This document shows, piece by piece, positions 2,105 through 56,881 of a stretch of 64,000 nucleotides of DNA. The stretch lies in contig JANQNB010000018.1 in NCBI GenBank assembly GCA_028279755.1, positions 134,611-198,610 on the forward strand. Direction: 5' to 3'. The stretch comes from Candidatus Nanoarchaeia archaeon. GTDB taxonomy: Archaea; Nanobdellota; Nanobdellia; Woesearchaeales; UBA525. The notes under the pieces are model-generated. The model had not been told where the DNA came from, searched no databases, and was given only the letters and a program-made list of their open reading frames with translations. The translations under genes and the position numbers were made by a program. The first letter of the stretch is position 1. Every line of letters starts with the position of its first letter.

Positions 2105-4144
2105 TTACCCGAGCCAGCTGCCCACAGCGAGGAAGACCGGCACGAAGACAAGCGCGACGATGGTCATGAGCTTGAGCAGGATGTTCAAGCTTGGCCCCGA
2201 CGTGTCCTTGAACGGGTCGCCGACCGTGTCGCCTGTCACGGCTGCTTTGTGCGCTTCGCTGCCCTTGCCGCCGTGCTTGCCAGTCTCGATGTACTTCTTC
2301 GCGTTGTCCCACGCGCCGCCGGCATTGGCCATCATCAGAGCGAGCATCACGCCGCTTGCGAGCGCGCCGGCGAGCATGCCGCCAAGCGCCTGGATGCCGA
2401 GCACGAGGCCGACCACGACTGGTGCGATCACCGCCAGGAGTCCTGGCAGGATCATCTGCTTCAGCGCGCCGGTGGTTGCGATGTCCACGCACTTTGCGTA
2501 GTCAGCTTTGGCTTTGCCTTTCATCAGGCCCTTGATCGTGCGGAACTGTCGTCGCACTTCCTCGATCATGTCAAAGGCTGCGCGGCCCACCGCTTTCATG
2601 CTCATGGCACTGAACAGGAAGGGAAGCATGCCGCCGATGAGGAGTCCGATGATGACGAGCGGTTCGGTCAGGCTGATCATCGTGAGCCCGGCTTGCTGCG
2701 CGAACGCAGTAAAGAGGGCCAAGGCCGTCAGTGCCGCGCTGCCGATAGCAAAACCCTTGCCGATAGCAGCAGTCGTGTTGCCAGCGCTGTCAAGCGCGTC
2801 AGTGCGCTTCCTGATCCGCGGACCAAGCTCTGCCATCTCTGCGATGCCGCCAGCATTGTCTGCCACAGGGCCATACGCGTCCACTGCCAGGCTGATGCCA
2901 AGCGTGCTGAGCATACCAACGGCTGCGATGGCGATGCCGTAGAGGCCGCCAGTATAGTACGCGACGCCGATAGCAGCGACGAGCACGAGGACTGGCCAGC
3001 CAGTGCTGCGCATGCCAACAGCGAGGCCTTCGATGATGTTCGTGGCTGCGCCGGTCAGGCTCGACTTGCTGATCTGCTTGGTCGGGCCGTAGTGATAGCT
3101 TGTGTAATACTCGGTCAGGAGACCGATCACCACGCCTGCGACAAGCCCGGAGAGCATGGCCCAGAACAGCGCGAGGCTGCTGAAATAATAGTTGGCCAGG
3201 AAGTAGGTGCCGATCGCGACCAGCACGCTCGCGACGATCACTCCCGAGTGCAAGGCCCAGTTGATCCGCTTGTCGTTGTTCGTGCGCACGAAGAACGTGC
3301 CGATGACGCTTGCGACAATGCCGAGGCCCGCAATCACGAGCGGGAAGAGGATGCCCTTCATGCCGAACGCGACCACGCCGAGGAGCATGGCGCTGATCAG
3401 ACTGCCCACGTAGCTCTCGAACAGGTCAGCGCCCATGCCTGCAACGTCGCCGACATTGTCGCCGACATTGTCTGCGATCGTCGCCGGATTTCTCGGATCG
3501 TCTTCCGGGATGCCTGCTTCCACCTTGCCCACAAGGTCAGCGCCGACATCAGCAGCTTTCGTGTAGATGCCACCGCCGACACGAGCGAAGAGCGCGATGG
3601 ATGATGCGCCGAAGCTGAAGCCCAGGATGAGTTCCAACGCTGCAGTGTCTGCTTCCACGCCAAAGGCGAGGAAGAGGATAAGCAAGCCGAGAAGGCCGAG
3701 GCCGACGACCGCGAGACCCATCACGCTGCCGCTCTTGAACGCGACGTTGAGCGCGCTGTTCAGATTTTTCCTCGCTGCTTGCGTCGTTCTGACAGCGGCG
3801 TGCGTGGCGATGCGCATGCCGATGTTGCCGGCGATAGCGCTTGCCAAGGCGCCGACGATGAACGCGATCGCCGTGGCTGGGAAGGGCGTGGTCGTGCCCA
3901 GGAAGACCAGGCCGGTTCGCGCGTCGACCGTGAGCCATAAAATAATGGCGACGATCAGCACGAACGCTGAGAGAATGTAGTATTCCCGTCGCAAAAAGGC
4001 CATCGCGCCTTCGCGGATATAGCCTGCGATTTCCTGCATGCGTTCAGTGCCTGCTTTCTGTTTTTTCACGTTGTTCGCCAAGAAGGCGCAATAAATCAGT
4101 CCGAGGACTGCAATCACAATCAAACCGTAGATCGTCAATATCAT
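2105..4144 (-). CDS. hppA: Membrane-bound proton-translocating inorganic pyrophosphatase.
   Basis: 679 aa and polytopic. The signature [35 protein letters not shown] is diagnostic of V-type H+-PPases. Confidence 0.92.
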
Positions 4145-8621: not shown

Positions 8622-8655
8622 CGTTTAAAAACAGCTTCTTGTTCGCGTAGCGCAG

Positions 8656-8752
8656 GCCCCTGTAGTGTAGTCCGGCCAATCATACCGCCCTCTCGAGGTC
8701 GCTTCGGCGCCAGAGCAAGGCGGTGACTCGGGTTCGAATCCCGGCGGGGGCA
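8656..8752 (+). tRNA. tRNA-Glu (anticodon CUC) with a ~22-nt intron at 37/38.
   Basis: The acceptor strands GCCCCTG and CGGGGGC pair (one G-U) and are followed by discriminator A. The anticodon stem is CCGCC/GGCGG with loop CU-CUC-G, interrupted by AGGTCGCTTCGGCGCCAGAGCA. The T arm is TCGGG-TTCGAAT-CCCGG. A TATA box TTTAAAAA lies about 25 nt upstream. No CCA is encoded. Confidence 0.75.
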
Positions 8753-8815
8753 TCGAGTGTAACGAGATGCACTCGCCGGTCCCGAAAGCTCTGCTTGAGG
8801 ATATCGGCGGGGGCA
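8753..8815 (+). repeat. tRNA 3' trailer element: a hairpin with a conserved loop followed by an 11-nt direct copy of the tRNA-Glu 3' end.
   Basis: The sequence is TCGAGTGTAACGAGATGCACTCGCCGGTCCCGAAAGCTCTGCTTGAGGATAT + CGGCGGGGGCA. The last 11 nt equal the tRNA 3' terminus. An oligo-T stretch CACTTTTTCT follows. Confidence 0.7.
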
Positions 8816-11673: not shown

Positions 11674-13100
11674 AGATAGAGGCGAAAAGCTCAGAGCTGC
11701 TCCGAACCCTCCTTGAGAAGAAGGACTTCCTCTTCGAAGCAGCCAGCCTTCACCAAGGACCAGTCCATCTCCTCCTCCCAGAGCAGCTTTCACGCAATGT
11801 CGAAGAGGTGAAGAGTCTCCTAGAAGAGTTTGACTGTATCAATCATATCTTCTTCGCTCACAAGTCAACAAAGTCGTTGGCCCTGCTCAAAGAGGCCCGG
11901 TTTGCCGGCATCAATCTCGACGTCGCCTCTCTCGGCGAGTTGACCAATGGACTTCGCGCAGGATTCACCGGGACGCAGATCGAGTGCACAGGTCCCAAAT
12001 CCTCTGAGTATCTCGAGGCAGCATTGCTCCATGGCTGCGCAATAAGCGTTGATTCACTCTCCGAGCTTCAGAAAATCGTACGTTTCACAAAGAGATTGCC
12101 GATCAAGCAAGCATCCATTCTGCTCAGGATTGGAGATCTCTCTCCCACTCATAAGGTACTCAAGAAAAGGGATTCGCTGTTCGGCCTTCCGAGGACAGCG
12201 CTTCCCGAAGCCTATGCTATGCTGAAGGAGAATCCGCATATCACTTTCAAAGGAGTCCACTTTCACAATGACGTACGCGATGCTGAGACACAGGCAGGCA
12301 CACTCTTATGCGCGATTGATATCCTCGTAGAGGCGATACAGCAGGGCTTTGAACCAACCATCATCAACATCGGCGGCGGATTGCGGACCGCCCAATTTGC
12401 AAACAAGCAACAAGTGCGGGCGTTTATCCAGCATCTGGAAGAAGGAGTCTCCAAACAAGAGCCTCTTGAGACCTGGCGCAATTACTCATATGGTATCTAC
12501 CTGAATCAACGCGGAACCATCTCGGGAAGGAAAGGACTGAGCGGAAAAATTGAAGTTCCTGAATACACCTCATTTCTTCGAGCCCTGCTCACAACACAAG
12601 GGAGAGATGGACGTCCACTCCTGGAGTTCATGGCCGAGAATATGATCGACCTCGCTCTCGAACCCGGCTTTCTTCTCTCCCAACAATGTGGACTGACACT
12701 TCTCCGTGTCGAGTCGGTCAACCAAGGAGCTGAAGGAAGACTCATCGTCAAGGTGGCAGGAAACATGTACAATCTCTCCTCTCAGATGGTGGAGCAGTTG
12801 ACAGACCCGATTCTCATCTCCAAAACAAAAGAGAAGAGCCCGTGCAGTGCTTTGATTGCAGGAAACCTGTGCAGAGAAGAAGATATGCTCTCGAAACGGT
12901 TCATTCCTTTTGAGCAGCGACCAAAGCAAGGAGACCTCATCTGTTTTCTGAACACCGCAGCGTACGCGGGAGGTTTCGAAGACGGAACGCCAATCCTGCA
13001 ACCAGAAGGAAAGCGCTTTGTCGTCACATTCAAGGATGGAAAGCCAACCCTTCTTTCAGAGGAGCTCTACTCTCCCTGGGAGGAACGAGATGATCTATAA
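11670..13100 (+). CDS. Type III (alanine-racemase-fold) PLP-dependent decarboxylase of the Orn/DAP/Arg decarboxylase family.
   Basis: FFAHKSTKSLALLKEARFAGINLDVASLGEL resembles the N-terminal TIM-barrel region with the PLP lysine. It is about 477 aa. Its start overlaps the upstream stop (ATGA). Confidence 0.65.
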   Translation: MKIEAKSSELLRTLLEKKDFLFEAASLHQGPVHLLLPEQLSRNVEEVKSLLEEFDCINHIFFAHKSTKSLALLKEARFAGINLDVASLGELTNGLRAGFTGTQIECTGPKSSEYLEAALLHGCAISVDSLSELQKIVRFTKRLPIKQASILLRIGDLSPTHKVLKKRDSLFGLPRTALPEAYAMLKENPHITFKGVHFHNDVRDAETQAGTLLCAIDILVEAIQQGFEPTIINIGGGLRTAQFANKQQVRAFIQHLEEGVSKQEPLETWRNYSYGIYLNQRGTISGRKGLSGKIEVPEYTSFLRALLTTQGRDGRPLLEFMAENMIDLALEPGFLLSQQCGLTLLRVESVNQGAEGRLIVKVAGNMYNLSSQMVEQLTDPILISKTKEKSPCSALIAGNLCREEDMLSKRFIPFEQRPKQGDLICFLNTAAYAGGFEDGTPILQPEGKRFVVTFKDGKPTLLSEELYSPWEERDDL

Positions 13101-14400: not shown

Positions 14401-14990
14401 TGCAACCGTTGAAGAAGGTGTTGGCACTCACGATCCTTCCTTTCTTGTTGCTTCTAGAGTTGACTCCTCTCGTTCGGAACAGCGTGCTCGCGTTTTTCGG
14501 AGGTGTTCTCATCCTGATTTTCGCGCCGCAGCTGATAGTTTTTGCAGTCTTCCTCTTCCTTGTCATCTTTATACAATTCCTCAACATGGCGATCGAGCCG
14601 ATTAGCTATCTTGGCATAGAGCTGGGCTACTTCTTCACTTTCATGTCAGGCTACCTCTTCGGCCCAATGTCTGGCTTCTGGTTCGGCGTTCTCTTCCTCA
14701 TCGCGCATCTTGTCCAACAATTACAGTGGGAATCCAACCCCTTCGATCTCCTTTTCAAAATCTTCGGCATTCCCGGCCTCGGTTACCTAGCAGGTTTGGT
14801 CAGCGGTATTAATGTAGTCTTCGCTGGCACGACTGCTGTAGTCGGTATCGCGATAGCCATTTTCATCATCAACATGTTGAGCAGTTTCGAGTCTGATCTG
14901 ACTGTTTTCTTTTGGTGCGTCGGTTTGGTCTTCTTCAACTTTATCCTGTTCAAAAGCCTTGCCCCGGTTATGACTGGCTTGCTCGGATAA
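14397..14990 (+). CDS. Small polytopic membrane protein, last gene of the coupled operon.
   Basis: MMQPLKKVLALTILPFLLLLELTPL... is strongly hydrophobic. The ATG overlaps the upstream TGA (ATGA). Confidence 0.6.
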   Translation: MMQPLKKVLALTILPFLLLLELTPLVRNSVLAFFGGVLILIFAPQLIVFAVFLFLVIFIQFLNMAIEPISYLGIELGYFFTFMSGYLFGPMSGFWFGVLFLIAHLVQQLQWESNPFDLLFKIFGIPGLGYLAGLVSGINVVFAGTTAVVGIAIAIFIINMLSSFESDLTVFFWCVGLVFFNFILFKSLAPVMTGLLG

Positions 14991-17373: not shown

Positions 17374-17471
17374 GCGTGGCGAAACCCTGGCCAGTTTTTA
17401 TTATTTATTATAAAGTGATGACAAGCACGCGAATCTTTTAAAAAGACCTCTTGTTCTCCAGCGCTTGCACT

Positions 17472-17540
17472 GAGGGGGTGCCGACAACCTCACGCGTTCC
17501 GCGTTCGGAGCCGCCACTCCCTCTCGGTGCTACGCACCTC
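17472..17540 (+). ncRNA. tRNA-Leu 5' leader element: a tRNA-like acceptor-stem mimic that begins with a 12-nt copy of the tRNA 5' end.
   Basis: GAGGGGGTGCCG at 17472 is identical to tRNA nt 1–12 at 17541. The leader ends ...CCACTCCCTCTCGG, which can pair with its own 5' GAGGGGG. A TATA TTTAAAAAG lies about 30 nt upstream at ~17436. Confidence 0.55.
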
Positions 17541-17624
17541 GAGGGGGTGCCGGAGTGGTCAAACGGGCTGGGTTCAGGACCCAGTAGCTTAGTGCTTGCG
17601 CGGGTTCGAACCCCGTCCCCCTCA
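17541..17624 (+). tRNA. tRNA-Leu (anticodon CAG) with a long variable arm.
   Basis: The acceptor is GAGGGGG/CCCCCTC plus discriminator A. The anticodon arm is CTGGG-TTCAGGA-CCCAG, the variable arm is about 16 nt, and the T arm is GCGGG-TTCGAAC-CCCGT. Confidence 0.85.
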
Positions 17625-17678
17625 TACGAAGTAGAAGGGGGACGGTCCCGAACGCTAGTGAGGATATCGTCCCCCTCA
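17625..17678 (+). repeat. tRNA-Leu 3' trailer element: a hairpin with a conserved loop followed by an 11-nt direct copy of the tRNA 3' end.
   Basis: The sequence is TACGAAGTAGAAGGGGGACGGTCCCGAACGCTAGTGAGGATAT + CGTCCCCCTCA. GGGGGACG and CGTCCCCC form an 8-bp stem around a loop that carries GGTCCCGAA..GAGGATAT. Confidence 0.7.
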
Positions 17679-18395
17679 TCATTCCTTTCTAGAAATGGTA
17701 CCTATCAGTGCTTTATGGTCGCTCACGCCGTCGATGACCTGCACGTCGCTGACACGGTAGTGCTTTGTCGAGAAGATGCTGTCGACAGCGAGCTGCAGGC
17801 CAGGCTTGCGATGCAGTTTCGGATCAAGGGTCGATTCCACGTCTGCTGGCAAGTTGTCTGTATAGTGCTCAGCGAGCTTCGTGAAGATCTCCCTGCCGCG
17901 CGGCGCGTTGAAATCGCCGCAGAGCACGAGCTCTTCCGGCGCGAAGCTGAGCAGCTTGGCCAAGGCCACGCGCTGCTTGTCATTCGCCTCGCCGTCGGGC
18001 GTCCAGGTGAAATGCGTCGTGCCGATGGTGAACGACTCGCCGTCTTTCCTGACTGTGGTGAACGCCAGCATGCGATCCTCGTCATCAGGATGTAAGTGCT
18101 CAGGCGCAGTCCCAGTGCCGACGTAGAACTTGATGGTGATCGGGTCGTGCTCGAGCGCTGTGAAGTATGCGAGCCCTTGCACGCCGCGAGCCTCCGCACT
18201 GAACTCGTTGACTCCGCTCTTTGTATGCATTGCCACGAAATGGCCCTCGCAGCCGATCGCCGCTGCGAGCTTCGGCATGTCTTCCTTGAACACTTCCTGG
18301 AGGCACACGACATCTGCAGAGTGCTGTTTGAGAAAAGGAAGCACGCGCTCGAGATGCATGCCGCCTTCGATGTTCAGGCAGAGGAGGGTGATCAT
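17679..18395 (-). CDS. Endonuclease/exonuclease/phosphatase (EEP) family protein.
   Basis: The CLQEV, GDFNAPRG and SDHKAL motifs are present. Confidence 0.75.
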   Translation of the reverse strand: MITLLCLNIEGGMHLERVLPFLKQHSADVVCLQEVFKEDMPKLAAAIGCEGHFVAMHTKSGVNEFSAEARGVQGLAYFTALEHDPITIKFYVGTGTAPEHLHPDDEDRMLAFTTVRKDGESFTIGTTHFTWTPDGEANDKQRVALAKLLSFAPEELVLCGDFNAPRGREIFTKLAEHYTDNLPADVESTLDPKLHRKPGLQLAVDSIFSTKHYRVSDVQVIDGVSDHKALIGTISRKE

Positions 18396-18450: not shown

Positions 18451-18528
18451 GCAGCCGTGGTGCAGTAGTTCAGCGTCGCTACCCTGGGAAGCAGGGGTTT
18501 CGGCGCTTCGCACCTCAAGCCCCTTAAC
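18451..18528 (+). ncRNA. tRNA-Gly(CCC) 5' leader element: a tRNA-like RNA that begins with a 16-nt copy of the tRNA 5' end.
   Basis: GCAGCCGTGGTGCAGT at 18451 is identical to the tRNA 5' end at 18529. The core CAGCGTCGCTACCCTGGGAAGCAGGGGTTTC is identical to that of the element at 56798..56881, and both end TCAAGCCCCTTAA. A TATA AATATAAAG lies about 25 nt upstream. Confidence 0.6.
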
Positions 18529-25129: not shown

Positions 25130-25176
25130 TGCACCCGCCGATGTCCTCAACCCTGTTTCGGGACCGGCGAGTGCTA
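25130..25176 (-). repeat. tRNA-Gly(UCC) 3' trailer element, same family as 8753..8815 and 17625..17678.
   Basis: In tRNA sense the sequence is TAGCACTCGCCGGTCCCGAAACAGGGTTGAGGACAT + CGGCGGGTGCA, a copy of the tRNA 3' end. GCACTCGCCGG is a near-reverse-complement of that 3' end. Confidence 0.65.
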
Positions 25177-25292
25177 TGCACCCGCCGGGACTCGAACCCG
25201 GGTAGCCGGCTGTCTTCGCCGCAGGCGGAGGCCCAGCGGGACCTCGTTCCGCGCGTGGAAGGCCGGAATCATAGCCACTAGATCACAGGTGC
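25177..25292 (-). tRNA. tRNA-Gly (anticodon UCC, tentative) with a ~44-nt intron at 37/38.
   Basis: In tRNA sense the acceptor is GCACCTG/CGGGTGC plus A. The anticodon stem is CCGGC/GCCGG with loop CU-UCC-A, then an intron, then A38. The T arm is CCGGG-TTCGAGT-CCCGG. A TATA TTTAAAAAG lies about 25 nt upstream. Confidence 0.65.
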
Positions 25293-25348
25293 GTTGCCTG
25301 GTGAGGACCGGACAAGCTTTTTAAACATACCGTTCTCTACACCTGTTC

Positions 25349-35585: not shown

Positions 35586-36920
35586 GTGATTATTATGGTC
35601 AAGAAAAAATCCACAAAAAAGACGCCCAAGGTTCACACCAATGGCGTGTTCGCCAACGCGATGCAGCAGCTCGAGCACGCGTACCAGTACATGAAAGTGA
35701 GCAATGACGCGAAAGAGACGCTCGCGAAACCGACACGATTCATCGAAGTCTCGATCCCTGTCAGGATGGACGATGGCTCGTTGAAGGTCTTCACTGGCTA
35801 CCGTGTCCAATACAATGACGCGCGCGGCCCGGCAAAAGGCGGCATCCGCTTTCATCCGCAAGTCGACCTGAGCGAGGTGAAGGCGCTCGCGTTCTGGATG
35901 ACGATCAAGACCGCAGTCGTCAACATCCCGTTCGGCGGGGGCAAAGGCGGCGTCATCGTCAATCCGAAAGAATTGAGCAAGCACGAATTGGAGCGGCTCA
36001 GCCGCGGCTACATCCGCGCAGTCGCAGACATCATCGGCCCGGATGTCGATATCCCTGCGCCAGACGTGTATACCAACCCGATGATCATGGGTTGGATGGC
36101 AGACGAGTACGGCACGATCGCGCGCCGCTACCAACCAGCTGTCATCACTGGCAAGCCATTGGCGCTCGGCGGCAGCAAAGGCCGCAACGAAGCGACAGCG
36201 AAAGGCGCGTTCTACACCTTGATGGAAGCAGTCAAGGTGAAAGAGATGACGCCGGCAGAGACGACCGTGGCGATCCAGGGTTTTGGCAACGCTGGCAGTT
36301 ATCTTGCGAAGATGCTGCACGAAGCCGGCTTCAAGGTCGTGGCAGTGAGCGACAGCAAAGGCGCAGTCTATGATAAAGACGGCCTTGACCCGTTCCAGCT
36401 CGCGAAAGTGAAACAAGGCAAGGGCAAGCTCAACGGTGTGTATTGCGAAGGCAGCGTATGCTGGGGTAAGGATCACAAGGAGATCAGCAACGAGAAACTC
36501 CTCGAACTGGATGTCGACATCCTCGCGCCTGCAGCGTTGGAGAATGTCATCACCAAAGCCAACGCTCGCAAGATCAAGGCGAAGATCGTGCTCGAGGTCG
36601 CGAACGGCCCGACAACGCCGGAAGCAGACACGATCCTGCACAAGAAAGGCGTGCTCGTCATCCCTGACGTGCTTGCCAATGCAGGCGGCGTGACAGTCAG
36701 TTATTTCGAATGGGTGCAGAACAAGCAAGGCTATTACTGGAGCGAGGAAGAAGTGTTCGACAAACTCAAAGAGTTGATCGTACCGGCATTCCACGAAATC
36801 TATGCAGGCATGGAGGAACACAGCTGCCTGATGCGGGATTCAGCCTTTGTGCACGCAGTCAAGCGGATCGTCGAGGCGATCGAGGCGAAAGGCACTGAGG
36901 ATCAGTACAAGACAGACTGA
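35586..36920 (+). CDS. gdhA: Glutamate dehydrogenase.
   Basis: 444 aa. The [21 protein letters not shown] and GFGNAGSY (NAD(P) Rossmann) motifs are present. Confidence 0.93.
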
Positions 36921-54789: not shown

Positions 54790-55344
54790 GTGGTGTTTGT
54801 GAACAAAACACTCATGTTAATAGTTCTGATAGCAGTAGGTGCCATGCTGGCAATGCCGGTGCATGGCGCAGCCTTTGCCAAGTACGACGGCATCGATGGC
54901 GAATCGAAAGACGCAGACCACGACAAGTGGATCGACGTGCTCAGCATCGACTGGGGCGTCCACAAGCCTGGCGGTGGCATGACCGGCCAGTCACGAAGGC
55001 GTGGCGCGGCTGTTGTTGAGGATCTTGTCCTGACGACAGAGTTTGAGAAATCGAGTCCGAAACTGCAGGAGAAATGCCTGAAAGGAGAAGTGATCCCGAA
55101 GCTGGAGATCGAGCTGACCTCAACCTATGGCGGCGCGCGCGCGACCTATCTCCGCTACGAGCTGAAGAACGTGATGATCACGAGCTATAAGATGACTGCG
55201 TCTGGCAACGACGAAGCAGGGCCGCCGACCGAGGAATACGGCGTCAACTTCGAAGAGATCAAGGTGACGTACACCGAATACGACGGATCCGGCTCGAGCC
55301 TGGGCAATGTCGAGATGGAGTACAAGGTCGAAGAGGGCGAGTAG
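54790..55344 (+). CDS. Hcp-family (type VI secretion tube protein-like) protein with an N-terminal signal peptide.
   Basis: After the signal sequence MVFVNKTLMLIVLIAVGAMLAMPVHGAAFA comes YDGIDGESKDADHDKWIDVLSIDWGV....FEKSSPKLQEKCLKGEV...YLRYELKNVMITSY...SGNDEAGPPTEEYGVNFEEIKVTY. This aligns with Hcp1 (GESKDK.H...IDVLS..WG; DKS.P.L...C; L.IT.K.V.ISS; E.V.LNF..V.V.Y). Confidence 0.75.
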   Translation: MVFVNKTLMLIVLIAVGAMLAMPVHGAAFAKYDGIDGESKDADHDKWIDVLSIDWGVHKPGGGMTGQSRRRGAAVVEDLVLTTEFEKSSPKLQEKCLKGEVIPKLEIELTSTYGGARATYLRYELKNVMITSYKMTASGNDEAGPPTEEYGVNFEEIKVTYTEYDGSGSSLGNVEMEYKVEEGE

Positions 55345-56193
55345 ATGCGTCTCGCTGTTGCCATTTTGATGTGCTTACTCATCATCCCCGTAGCAGCAGC
55401 GATGCCATACGTCCCTGACTATTCGATCTTCTATGAGAAGTCGGCTGGATCACCTTTGCTTACAGAAGGTGATTATTACAACCTTTTCGTTCTGTCTATA
55501 CATCTGCCTGATGGCGGCACAGGGCCAACACGGCGCCGAGGCGCTCCAGTGACTGGCGCTGAAGTGACGCGCGAGTTCGACAAGGCAAGCCCGAAACTGC
55601 AAGAAGCTATCCTGAAAGGCGACACCTTCGCAGCAGTCAGGCTCACCATGCCAGGCAGCAGCGATATGATCCTGCACAACGTGACCTTCACGAATTACTC
55701 GTTCCACGCATCTGGCAACGACGAGGCAGGACCGCCGACAGAGACTATCACCTTGGATTTCGAGGAGATAACCTGGGGTGAGAACGTCACCAATACGACC
55801 AACACCACGAACCTGACCGCGCCTTTCACTGTGACGATCGAGCCAGACTACGCGAAGATCAAGAAAGGCGAGAACGTGAAGTACCTTGTTGTGATCGACG
55901 CTGACGAAGGATTCAACGAGCTCGTGCAGCTCGAAATGGACCTTGACATCCCACTCGGCGACCAACACTATATTATCGACACCTACGGGCCGGACTATCC
56001 GGTGCGACTGAACTACACGCTGATCGTGCCCTCGAACCTGCCGTTCGGCTTTGTCGCGCACGGCACGATCATCGGCATCAGCGAACCCTATCAAGCGACA
56101 GACGACTTCATCGTCGTGGTCGAAGGTCCGGCCATGGGCGTGGGCAAGTTCCTGAACGGGATTGACAGATTCTTTGAAGGATTGTTTGGTTGA
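55345..56193 (+). CDS. Second Hcp-family domain protein with a signal peptide and a ~130-aa Asn/Thr-rich C-terminal extension.
   Basis: After MRLAVAILMCLLIIPVAAA comes TRRRGAPVTGAEVTREFDKASPKLQEAILKGDTFAAVRLTM...HNVTFTNYSFHASGNDEAGPPTETITLDFEEITW. The extension carries NVTNTTNTTNLT sequons. It starts directly after the stop of the first Hcp-like gene. Confidence 0.7.
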   Translation: MRLAVAILMCLLIIPVAAAMPYVPDYSIFYEKSAGSPLLTEGDYYNLFVLSIHLPDGGTGPTRRRGAPVTGAEVTREFDKASPKLQEAILKGDTFAAVRLTMPGSSDMILHNVTFTNYSFHASGNDEAGPPTETITLDFEEITWGENVTNTTNTTNLTAPFTVTIEPDYAKIKKGENVKYLVVIDADEGFNELVQLEMDLDIPLGDQHYIIDTYGPDYPVRLNYTLIVPSNLPFGFVAHGTIIGISEPYQATDDFIVVVEGPAMGVGKFLNGIDRFFEGLFG

Positions 56194-56600: not shown

Positions 56601-56669
56601 TGGGGCTACGAGGATAACTCGAGCGGAGCTCTCGTAACCTCTCATCCCCAGTTCTCACTATGTTCGAAC
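56601..56669 (-). repeat. tRNA-Pro 3' trailer element ending in a 14-nt direct copy of the tRNA 3' end.
   Basis: Plus-strand TGGGGCTACGAGGA at 56601..56614 repeats 56670..56683. In tRNA sense the trailer is GTTCGAAC...GAGAGCTCCGCTCGAGTTAT + CCTCGTAGCCCCA. Confidence 0.6.
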
Positions 56670-56787
56670 TGGGGCTACGAGGATTTGAACCCCGGTTGCC
56701 AGGTGTTTTGATCTCGGATCAAAACCCGCGAGGACTTTGTCCGAGCATGCCCAAACCTGGAGTGATACCAAGCTACACTATAGCCCC
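56670..56787 (-). tRNA. tRNA-Pro (anticodon UGG) with a ~45-nt intron at 37/38.
   Basis: In tRNA sense the acceptor is GGGGCTA/TAGCCCC plus A. The anticodon stem is CCAGG/CCTGG with loop UU-UGG-G then an intron. The T arm is CGGGG-TTCAAAT-CCTCG. Confidence 0.7.
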
Positions 56788-56797
56788 GGTGAATCTG

Positions 56798-56881
56798 TTT
56801 AAGGGGCTTGACTGAGCGTCAGCGAAGGAAACCCCTGCTTCCCAGGGTAGCGACGCTGATACCGAGCTACACTATAGCCCC
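56798..56881 (-). ncRNA. tRNA-Pro 5' leader element: a promoter-proximal tRNA-like RNA that begins with a 17-nt copy of the tRNA-Pro 5' end.
   Basis: In tRNA sense it reads GGGGCTATAGTGTAGCT (= tRNA-Pro nt 1–17) CGGTATCAGCGTCGCTACCCTGGGAAGCAGGGGTTTCCTTCGCTGACGCTCAGTCAAGCCCCTTAAA. Its 5' GGGGCT and 3' AGCCCC can pair like an acceptor stem. A TATA CTATATATAGG lies about 33 nt upstream. The 31-nt core is identical to that of 18451..18528. Confidence 0.6.

Follow-up and report, generated by a model that had tools for sequence, protein, structure and literature searches.

Copies of its own ends around a tRNA-Leu(CAG) gene, and hairpin cassettes at woesearchaeal tRNA genes

Why does a complete tRNA gene lie between copies of its own two ends? 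The question is raised by the tRNA-Leu(CAG) gene in a stretch of 64,000 nucleotides (nt) from contig JANQNB010000018.1 of a Candidatus Nanoarchaeia archaeon; this whole stretch is called the window below. An Exo_endo_phos neighbor and SRP54 match best in Candidatus Woesearchaeota assemblies, and the window is from this DPANN group, on a parent contig of 375 kb. The initial annotation of the locus described a bracketed tRNA, in which mimics of both ends pair with each other in a helix reminiscent of rRNA processing stems. The reading that we favor, with slightly better than even confidence, is that the tRNA-Leu(CAG) gene is a normal one, that its termini were extended by members of a family of self-copy hairpin cassettes through insertion or duplication, and that the bracket is their by-product. 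The locus has the following features. The outer copies are those apart from the tRNA gene, the T core is described further below, and MFE is the minimum free energy structure.

17436..17444, + strand: TATA-like box TTTTAAAAA of the tRNA-Leu unit, 27 nt upstream of the outer 5' copy
17451..18095, + strand: spurious open reading frame (ORF) through the locus, no Pfam match
17472..17483, + strand: outer 5' copy GAGGGGGTGCCG, equal to tRNA positions 1-12 (12/12 against 17541-52; P < 1/20000)
17484..17514, + strand: leader interior, of which 17488-17513 is complementary to the trailer T core (inverted repeats)
17515..17523, + strand: anti-5' arm CACTCCCTC, pairing with the outer 5' copy or with the tRNA 5' strand
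17525..17540, + strand: small hairpin CGGTGCTACGCACCTC, fold GGUGC-UAC-GCACC
17541-17624, + strand: tRNA-Leu(CAG), found by ARAGORN; Rfam RF00005, 55.1 bits against a gathering score of 29
17636..17646, + strand: anti-3' arm AGGGGGACGGT, local partner 17666-76, partner in the full-length MFE the tRNA 3' end at 17613-22
17647..17665, + strand: T core C-CC-GA-AC-GCTA-GT-GA-GG-AT, a tandem-GA hairpin
17668..17678, + strand: outer 3' copy CGTCCCCCTCA, equal to tRNA positions 63-73 and ending at the discriminator (11/11, or 12 with the next T)

The gene itself is a member of RF00005, with a score above the gathering score and an assigned anticodon. It does not encode CCA and has no intron. A repeat search recovered the 12-nt 5' duplicate 69 nt upstream as it had been described: GAGGGGGTGCCG is present at 17472-17483 and at 17541-17552 with an identity of 12/12 and a start-to-start spacing of 69. 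At the other end, CGTCCCCCTCAT is present at 17614-17625 and at 17668-17679, also with an identity of 12/12 when the next base is included. This duplicate had been placed 55 nt downstream; the start-to-start spacing is 54, and the gap between the end of the tRNA and the outer 3' copy is 43 nt. The outer 3' copy is followed by a pyrimidine-rich tract and then by the stop codon of a convergent gene. In 20000 random 160-nt windows drawn from the same sequence away from tRNAs, at most 9 nt were common to the 5' 30-mer or the 3' 25-mer of tRNA-Leu, against the observed 12 and 11. Because none of the 20000 exceeds 9 nt, the end repeats are not due to chance. The ORF at 17451-18095 is an artefact, as had been proposed. 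It is antisense to a well-supported Exo_endo_phos gene (17679-18395, − strand), which has over 1300 homologues.

All five tRNA genes in the window (5/5) bear a leader cassette, a trailer cassette or both, and the cassettes have a common build: a copy of the tRNA end (from +1 or to position 73), an arm complementary to it, and a conserved apical module. Both cassettes are present at tRNA-Leu and tRNA-Pro, only the trailer cassette at tRNA-Glu and tRNA-Gly(UCC), and only the leader cassette at tRNA-Gly(CCC). The genes other than tRNA-Leu and their cassettes are listed here.

8656-8752, + strand: tRNA-Glu, canonical intron, recovered by the strict bulge-helix-bulge (BHB) scan
8753..8815, + strand: trailer T cassette of tRNA-Glu, with an anti arm, the T core at 8778-8805 and the 3' copy CGGCGGGGGCA at 8805-8815
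18451..18528, + strand: leader cassette of tRNA-Gly(CCC), with the 5' copy at 18451-70 and the L module; covariance model (CM) R1, 73.6 bits
18529-18600, + strand: tRNA-Gly(CCC)
25130..25176, − strand: trailer T cassette of tRNA-Gly(UCC), with the anti arm GCACTCGCCGG, the T core and the 3' copy CGGCGGGTGCA at 25140-25130; z −4.7
25177-25292, − strand: tRNA-Gly(UCC), intron-containing
56601..56669, − strand: trailer of tRNA-Pro, with a small GA hairpin, the T cassette and the 15-nt 3' copy ATCCTCGTAGCCCCA at 56615-56601
56670-56787, − strand: tRNA-Pro(UGG), canonical intron, recovered by the strict BHB scan
56788..56881, − strand: leader cassette of tRNA-Pro(UGG), with a 25-nt 5' copy and the L module; 82.4 bits

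The 5' copies start at tRNA +1 (12 nt in Leu, 20 nt with 1 mismatch in Gly, 25 nt with 1 mismatch in Pro), and the 3' copies stop at the discriminator, position 73 (11 nt in Leu, Glu and Gly(UCC), 15 nt in Pro). Reciprocal controls, in which the 5' end was sought downstream and the 3' end upstream, gave only 5-7 nt. The 20-nt 5' copy of tRNA-Gly(CCC) is 78 nt upstream and is followed by the L module, CAGCGTCGCTACCCTGGGAAGCAGGGGTTTC-[hairpin]-CTCAAGCCCCT. The outer copy differs from the inner one by a single D-loop nucleotide in tRNA-Gly(CCC) (A versus G) and in tRNA-Pro (C versus U). The hairpin at 17525-17540 in the tRNA-Leu leader shows 14/16 identity to 18501-18516 within the L module of tRNA-Gly(CCC). 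The Glu and Gly(UCC) cassettes have one and the same anti arm, GCACTCGCCGG; the two tRNA ends differ by one base, which leaves a mismatch in Glu. Such a common arm is consistent with a cassette having passed from one tRNA gene to another with a similar 3' end.

Two modules are recognized in these cassettes: the leaders have the "L" core, and the trailers have the "T" core with its tandem GA. Loci outside the window are numbered from L001 to L018 below. The T core has the layout NN-GA-(2-4 bp hairpin)-GA-NN in four trailers of the window (Leu, Glu, Gly(UCC) and Pro) and continues through a 1 x 2-nt asymmetric loop into a basal stem of 9-13 bp, formed by the anti arm and the 3' copy. It is also present in L012, L008 and L018. 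In a set of the four window trailers and two trailers from other genomes, 94.7% of cells are paired, compensatory changes are found in 7/10 pairs, and the G-A...G-A positions are invariant. Neither any of 500 shuffles (0/500) nor any slid register comes near the covariation score, a comparison somewhat inflated by the derivation of the structure from the same sequences. The T-shaped fold is seen in nine trailers. In a motif scan, T cores with long basal stems were confined to tRNA trailers, and shuffled windows gave 0-2 weak matches.

The stems of nine trailer hairpins contain 13 G-U pairs, some of them shared by descent, versus 2 A/C mismatches. In the L017 trailer, the U of the 3' copy and the A of the anti arm changed together, where the tRNA has C. 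In L018, the anti arm pairs by G-U (GUAGUCG:CGGCUGC), and these pairs are mismatches as DNA. These patterns, of which the pair count is suggestive only, point to constraint that acts on the hairpin in the transcribed RNA and not on its match to the tRNA. In the favored reading, the T hairpin itself is under constraint as an RNA structure, and it is probably a terminator-proximal or protein-binding element of the trailer.

The T core resembles the box C'/D' K-loop of archaeal C/D sRNAs, in that its CCGA ... UGAGGA has tandem sheared-type G-A/A-G positions flanked by Watson-Crick pairs, with arms of ~12 nt. It differs from the K-loop in having no terminal C/D boxes and no 3-nt bulge, in the replacement of U-U by C-G, and in the absence of an Rfam match. 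Membership in the C/D class was taken to need terminal C and D boxes at ~12-nt spacing from the C'/D' boxes and an Rfam match. By reading, the Leu, Glu, Pro and Gly(UCC) trailers have no C (RUGAUGA) or D (CUGA) box where one would be expected, and the T cassette was rejected as a C/D sRNA. A K-turn, the motif bound by L7Ae, has tandem G-A pairs directly beside a 3-nt bulge. In the T core, the G-A...G-A positions do not vary and there is covariation in their flanks; in the predicted structure, 2 bp lie between the G-A pairs and the asymmetric loop of 1 x 2 nt. The anti-3' arm was also considered as a sequence like a primer-binding site and rejected, as it contains no complement of CCA. Rfam, in both gathering and E-value modes, returned tRNAs only, with no family for L or T.

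The L core is ~97-100% identical over ~30 nt between the window, where it occurs twice, and four other sources. L001 and L002 are from one metagenome-assembled genome, L004 and L005 are from one sample, and L008 is also among the sources. These loci were found by exact-pattern scans in another Woesearchaeota assembly and in metagenome contigs.

L001: L core after the minihelix-like trailer of tRNA-Phe
L002: L core upstream of tRNA-Val, with a 15-nt 5' copy
L004 and L005: L core upstream of a tRNA, with a 15-nt copy; two tandem units in L005
L008: L core between tRNA-Ala genes

Three further loci of the metagenome scan, L003, L006 and L007, were discarded as chance hits within coding regions. 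The two units of L005, each a 5' copy plus L, are at 14743-14898 before an intron-containing tRNA, and the contig ends inside the array. A 9-10-nt hairpin, CGCCTGCGG(C), is found in the intron of the window tRNA-Gly(UCC) (25223-25240, − strand), as the variable hairpin of the L module in L002 (2523-2532), and in the tRNA intron of L005.

An unbiased set of relative loci was reached through neighboring proteins, and the cassettes differ among these orthologs. The window, L011 and L017 have a leader cassette at tRNA-Leu(CAG); L009 and L010 lack it, and there the promoter lies 26 nt from the tRNA. The outer 5' copies drift: L017 has GAGAGGGTGTCG versus GAGGGGGTGCCG in the tRNA, and L011 has GAGGGCG versus GAGGGAG. 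The trailer cassette of tRNA-Leu is clear in the window alone and is degenerate or absent in the other loci (none in L017). For tRNA-Gly(CCC), the window has the copy and L (+75 nt) behind the AATGAATATAAAGCTTT promoter and no trailer cassette. L012 keeps the AATGAATATAAAGCTTT promoter, with one T cassette and no leader cassette; in L018 the T cassette is doubled in tandem, with loops that are nearly as in the window. The T cassette of tRNA-Gly(UCC) is shared by the window and L017, and there is none in L016 and L018. In these two loci, tRNA-Gly(UCC) has D-loop inserts at about position 20/21, where the L-type 5' copies end (L016 3174-3278; L018 7927-8085); the strict BHB scan does not recognize these inserts. 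The presence and absence in orthologs, the tandem copies and the decay therefore indicate that cassettes have been gained, amplified, eroded and lost within a time scale of 80-90% SRP54 identity.

An L-like sequence is also found inside a canonical intron of tRNA-Gly(CCC) in L013 (35-101, − strand), as CCTGGGAA..GGGTT-GAGCTTCGCTC-AAGCCC, with 15.4 bits and an E value of 0.005 for CM R1. This similarity links the leader modules to tRNA introns.

Several structures in the relative loci are recorded here as observations. In L018, the two T units after tRNA-Gly(CCC), each an anti arm, a T core and a 3' copy, occupy 12750-12910 (− strand), and tRNA-Gly(UCC) carries a canonical intron besides its D-loop insert. 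In L016 (SRP54 identity 88%), a LAGLIDADG_3 ORF of ~0.9 kb lies between the conserved old promoter (GGTATGTTTAAAAAG..GTCCGGTCCTC) and tRNA-Gly(UCC) (2230-3280); this tRNA has acquired a new TATA box and has a 30-nt D-loop insert. In L017 (12120-12250, − strand), tRNA-Leu(CAG) and tRNA-Gly(CCC) stand side by side without an intervening gene, and an L module separates the two. This module is preceded by a 5' fragment, GCGTCCGTGGTGCTGT, which is like the 5' end of the window-type tRNA-Gly and unlike the tRNA that follows, and its L core has two substitutions weakening the main helix. The trailer of tRNA-Leu in L012 has a hairpin, GGGGGTCT-CGCGCTACGCGC-TCGAGCCCCC (1357-1390, − strand), which is built like P2/P3 of the L module and like the hairpin before tRNA-Leu in the window.

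Where does transcription of such a unit begin? The outer 5' copy of tRNA-Leu is placed relative to the promoter as the 5' end of a tRNA would be. The distance from the TATA box to the outer 5' copy is 27 nt for Leu, 24 nt for Gly(CCC), 28 nt for Leu of L011 and 26 nt for Val of L002; tRNA-Pro, with 35 nt, is the exception. At genes with no leader cassette, the distance from the TATA box to the tRNA itself is 24 nt for Glu, 25 nt for Gly(UCC) and 27 nt for Gly of L012. The promoter comparison found no TATA box proper to the inner tRNAs behind a leader cassette. The spacing fits the outer copy, not the inner tRNA, and transcription is therefore likely to begin at or just before the outer copy. 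T- or pyrimidine-rich tracts follow the outer 3' copies. The TATA box of tRNA-Leu is kept in the orthologs L011, L017 and L009. A CTTGTTC-like motif is seen ~8 nt past the TATA box of several tRNA promoters (window 17446-17458, 8633-8645 and 25311-25320 (−); L011 1120-1131 (−)).

From these arrangements, the following mechanism is proposed. Each cassette consists of the last or first 11-25 nt of the tRNA in duplicate, an arm complementary to the duplicate, and an apical module common to several tRNA genes, which is the T core in trailers and the L core or a related hairpin in leaders. The outer copy would be the ancestral gene end, still beside the TATA box on the 5' side or the pyrimidine/T tract on the 3' side, and the functional tRNA end would be on the inner side of the insert. 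Cassettes would be gained, tandemly amplified and passed between tRNA genes with similar ends, and they would decay and be lost among close relatives. Transcription would run from at or just before the outer 5' copy to past the outer 3' copy. Co-transcriptionally, the complementary arm that belongs to each extra copy would hold this copy in a local hairpin resembling an acceptor stem; the tRNA would thereby fold and would be excised by RNase P and tRNase Z. Equilibration of the full transcript would give the bracket, in which the outer copies pair together and the anti arms pair with the tRNA strands. Where the transcript begins and ends, which enzymes process it and how cassettes spread are our inferences. 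The cassettes may be selfish mobile inserts, elements useful to the host, or both. They may act in termination beside the T tract, protect the ends, or bind a protein through the tandem-GA hairpin.

The two states of this proposal are seen in folding models. The leader hairpin folded alone pairs 17472-80 with 17515-23 (−32.6 kcal/mol, z −3.2), the tRNA folded alone is a cloverleaf (−41.5 kcal/mol), and the trailer hairpin folded alone has 11 bp between the anti-3' arm and the 3' copy (−24.6 to −25.9 kcal/mol, z −3.8). The arms of this trailer hairpin, AGGGGGACG (17636-44) and CGTCCCCCT (17668-76), which had been pointed out before, are among the computed inverted repeats. When the primary-transcript region 17465-17685 (221 nt) was folded with RNAfold, as the initial annotation had proposed, the outer copies were found in a long-range helix. 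The MFE is −117.5 kcal/mol (z −6.4), and the pairing probability of the outer copies is 0.997-1.0. The helix extends past the copies by CGA/UCG, CCUCAC/GUGAGG and GCGUUC/GAACGC. In this fold, 17515-23 takes the 5' strand of the tRNA (17541-49), and 17636-45 takes the 3' strand. As modeled, the tRNA-Leu locus is three consecutive units with the same acceptor-type stem each, and it has two mutually exclusive global folds.

It is quite unlikely that the bracket is functional, that is, that the copies and the adjacent complementary segments enclose pre-tRNA-Leu in a stem like that of an rRNA operon, which would direct or protect maturation. The pairing potential is real: TGAGGGGG (17471-78) and CCCCCTCA (17671-78) are among the computed inverted repeats, as had been noticed, and they pair at P ~1.0 in both the MFE and the ensemble. 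Complementarity also goes past the copies at this locus. The duplex between leader 17484-17514 and trailer 17640-17667 has −29.8 kcal/mol against −15.9 +/- 3.4 kcal/mol for shuffles (P ~0.003), and the full leader-trailer duplex has −62.7 against −33.4 +/- 4.7 kcal/mol. A Smith-Waterman comparison of the leader with the reverse complement of the trailer aligned only CCTCAC--GCGTTC (P 0.07). An origin of the leader as an inverted T module was considered; with this marginal alignment, despite the significant duplex energy, it is suggestive and not established. The tRNA-Pro fold likewise pairs outer copy with outer copy, but tRNA-Pro, which has both cassettes, shows complementarity beyond the copies only at the chance level (z −0.36). 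In L011, the leader-trailer duplex is no better than shuffles (z −0.5, or +0.2 without the copy). A conserved bracket was rejected on these two non-significant results. The helix is not conserved with covariation in orthologous loci, as it is not significant in L011 and lacks one side in L017, which has no trailer cassette, and in L009, which has no leader; a lack of covariation in homologues is what the initial annotation had named as speaking against its proposal. Moreover, 3/5 of the window tRNAs have a single cassette, and the anti arms in the bracket fold sequester both acceptor strands, so that no tRNA-shaped substrate remains. Archaeal rRNA and tRNA processing stems are similar in that a long-range helix of leader and trailer can enclose the mature RNA, and L013 has an L-like BHB intron. 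The Leu helix differs from them in having no BHB and in not being conserved in orthologs. PMC7714728 gives the BHB as the substrate of the splicing endonuclease in tRNA and rRNA precursors. Here, a BHB was defined by two 3-nt bulges on opposite strands with a 4-bp helix between them, the cleavage of which releases the mature RNA or removes the insert. The strict scan found none in the Leu leader-trailer helix and none with the right period at cassette borders. It recovered the introns of tRNA-Glu, tRNA-Pro and tRNA-Gly(CCC) of L009 (L009t) as positive controls, and it also fails on the D-loop inserts of L016 and L018, so that relaxed substrates could escape it. From the bracketed tRNA as first described, the mimics of both ends therefore stand, and a processing stem of the rRNA type is unsupported. 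The best-supported reading of the bracket is that it is a by-product, which arises automatically once a single transcript contains both acceptor strands in copy.

The remaining alternatives concern the copies themselves. Partial tRNA duplications at attachment (att) sites of integrative elements, in which a direct terminal repeat brackets the insert and the tRNA is intact (PMC3293823), are the nearest known phenomenon. The cassettes could be relics of such elements, viruses or plasmids that entered site-specifically and were almost completely deleted, leaving partial tRNA duplicates; this is unlikely. Partial copies beside an intact tRNA are the classical footprint of integration, and an archaeal case has a 5' tRNA fragment upstream of the gene (PMC3293823). 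As in att duplications, a direct repeat of part of the tRNA flanks inserted DNA, the displaced original end stays beside the old flank, and presence and absence are polymorphic between close relatives; the LAGLIDADG ORF of L016 between the old promoter and tRNA-Gly(UCC) also fits. In contrast to att duplications, the inserts are just 36-94 nt, non-coding and structured, with the same cores at different tRNAs and in different genomes, and random deletion would not repeat one remnant. Each insert has an arm complementary to its own tRNA end, an inverted copy that att sites do not have. The repeats run exactly to tRNA position 1 or 73, and tandem amplification is possible (L005, L018). Neither an integrase in the 64 kb or near the cassettes, nor a recombinase among the ~50 window ORFs, nor an L or T match in viral contigs was found. 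No displaced tRNA fragment marking a large integrated element was found in the window, where 10-11-mers at 35933, 12321 and 709 are chance matches in coding sequence. It is very unlikely that the outer copies are the true exons of a leaderless transcript, with the module and the inner copy spliced out as a non-canonical intron by a broad-specificity endonuclease, independently of RNase P. The TATA spacing does set the start at the outer copy, as in the near-leaderless tRNAs of the same genomes, an L-like sequence is a canonical intron in L013, and the D-loop inserts of L016 and L018 are at about position 20/21, where L-type 5' copies end. Against this, the strict scan found no BHB within the copies whose two cuts are one repeat period apart, and the relaxed scan gave only pseudo-motifs from palindromic tetramers of the two copies, the product of which would have an altered D-loop. 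Splicing was rejected, as neither the strict scan nor the period-constrained relaxed scan gave a usable motif. An acceptor stem made with the outer copy of L017 or of L011 would be defective because of its substitutions, and the inner tRNA is complete in every case. A split or permuted tRNA gene, the pieces of which are encoded separately and joined through a BHB of leader and trailer, does not fit, as every locus has a complete colinear tRNA and the strict scan found no such BHB. Chance repeats in a G+C-rich intergenic region are a negligible explanation. The repeats are short (11-12 nt) and of low complexity (G5/C5 runs), but none of the 20000 random windows reaches such lengths, the same architecture is present at 5/5 window tRNAs and in several other genomes, and the limits of the copies coincide exactly with tRNA positions 1 and 73.

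By size, the nearest known phenomenon is the target duplication of casposons at tRNA 3' ends. A casposon integrates at the 3'-terminal region of a tRNA gene, with a target duplication of 15 bp in A. boonei (PMC5137440). The cassettes share this target and a direct duplication of similar size. Casposons have a duplication of fixed length, an overlap of 5 bp with the tRNA, and a large element with terminal inverted repeats and Cas1, whereas the cassettes have duplications of 8-25 nt wholly inside the tRNA, no terminal inverted repeats and no Cas1. Nor do they agree with a casposon or a miniature inverted-repeat transposable element in that their duplications are 8, 11, 12, 13, 15, 20 and 25 nt and their hairpin arms are specific to the tRNA, not constant.

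The cassette reading, which we prefer to these alternatives, has its own difficulties. L001 to L008 were found with L itself as the probe and are a biased sample. In the nearest-neighbor model, the bracket is ~17 kcal/mol better than the three local domains (−117.5 versus −100.0), and correct folding of tRNA-Leu must therefore be kinetic. Among ~50 ORFs of the 64-kb window, Pfam detects no integrase, transposase, reverse transcriptase or Cas1, and viral contigs contain neither the L nor the T pattern. The length of the duplication varies, unlike that of a fixed target-site duplication, and we know of no mechanism that makes direct and inverted copies of a target end around a constant core. Moreover, the conservation of the L core and the covariation of the T core fit a host function equally well as a mobile element.

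A wider reading is tentative. L and T modules may be an undescribed class of structured RNAs resident in tRNA genes of Woesearchaeota, found in leaders, trailers and introns, which form acceptor-stem minihelices and spread via homology of tRNA ends. Such a class could be either a miniature mobile element for tRNA termini or a lineage-specific device for pre-tRNA maturation or termination with a protein-binding tandem-GA hairpin. Full-text literature searches found no account of such cassettes, which is weak negative evidence. The origin of introns, fragments and splits in archaeal tRNA genes is an old open question, for which integration of mobile DNA is the leading and thinly documented idea. 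If the wider reading is true, the modules would be a living intermediate in the disruption of archaeal tRNA genes into intron-containing, fragmented and split forms. This clade shows many states together, with modules at either end of orthologous tRNA genes or in their intron, and with copies that are perfect, decaying or tandemly amplified; comparative genomics and metatranscriptomics can therefore be used to test the question. A T hairpin that binds a protein or takes part in termination would be a new cis-element in the expression of archaeal tRNAs.

The cassettes also matter for annotation. They give spurious ORFs. As a separate matter, intron-containing tRNAs of this genome can be missed: one of the five window tRNAs, tRNA-Gly(UCC) at 25177-25292 (− strand), was missed by both ARAGORN and Rfam with default filters, and it scored 47.3 bits, above the gathering score, in E-value mode. 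Both problems are to be expected in the annotation of DPANN genomes.

Two minor observations come from the last part of the window. A second small GA...GA hairpin, GUUC-GA-AC-AUA-GU-GA-GAAC, is present at 56653-56667 (− strand), just after tRNA-Pro and upstream of its T cassette. At 54814-56193 (+ strand), two adjacent ORFs match Pfam T6SS_HCP (Hcp; E values 2e-33 and 2e-8), which is unexpected in a DPANN archaeal contig.

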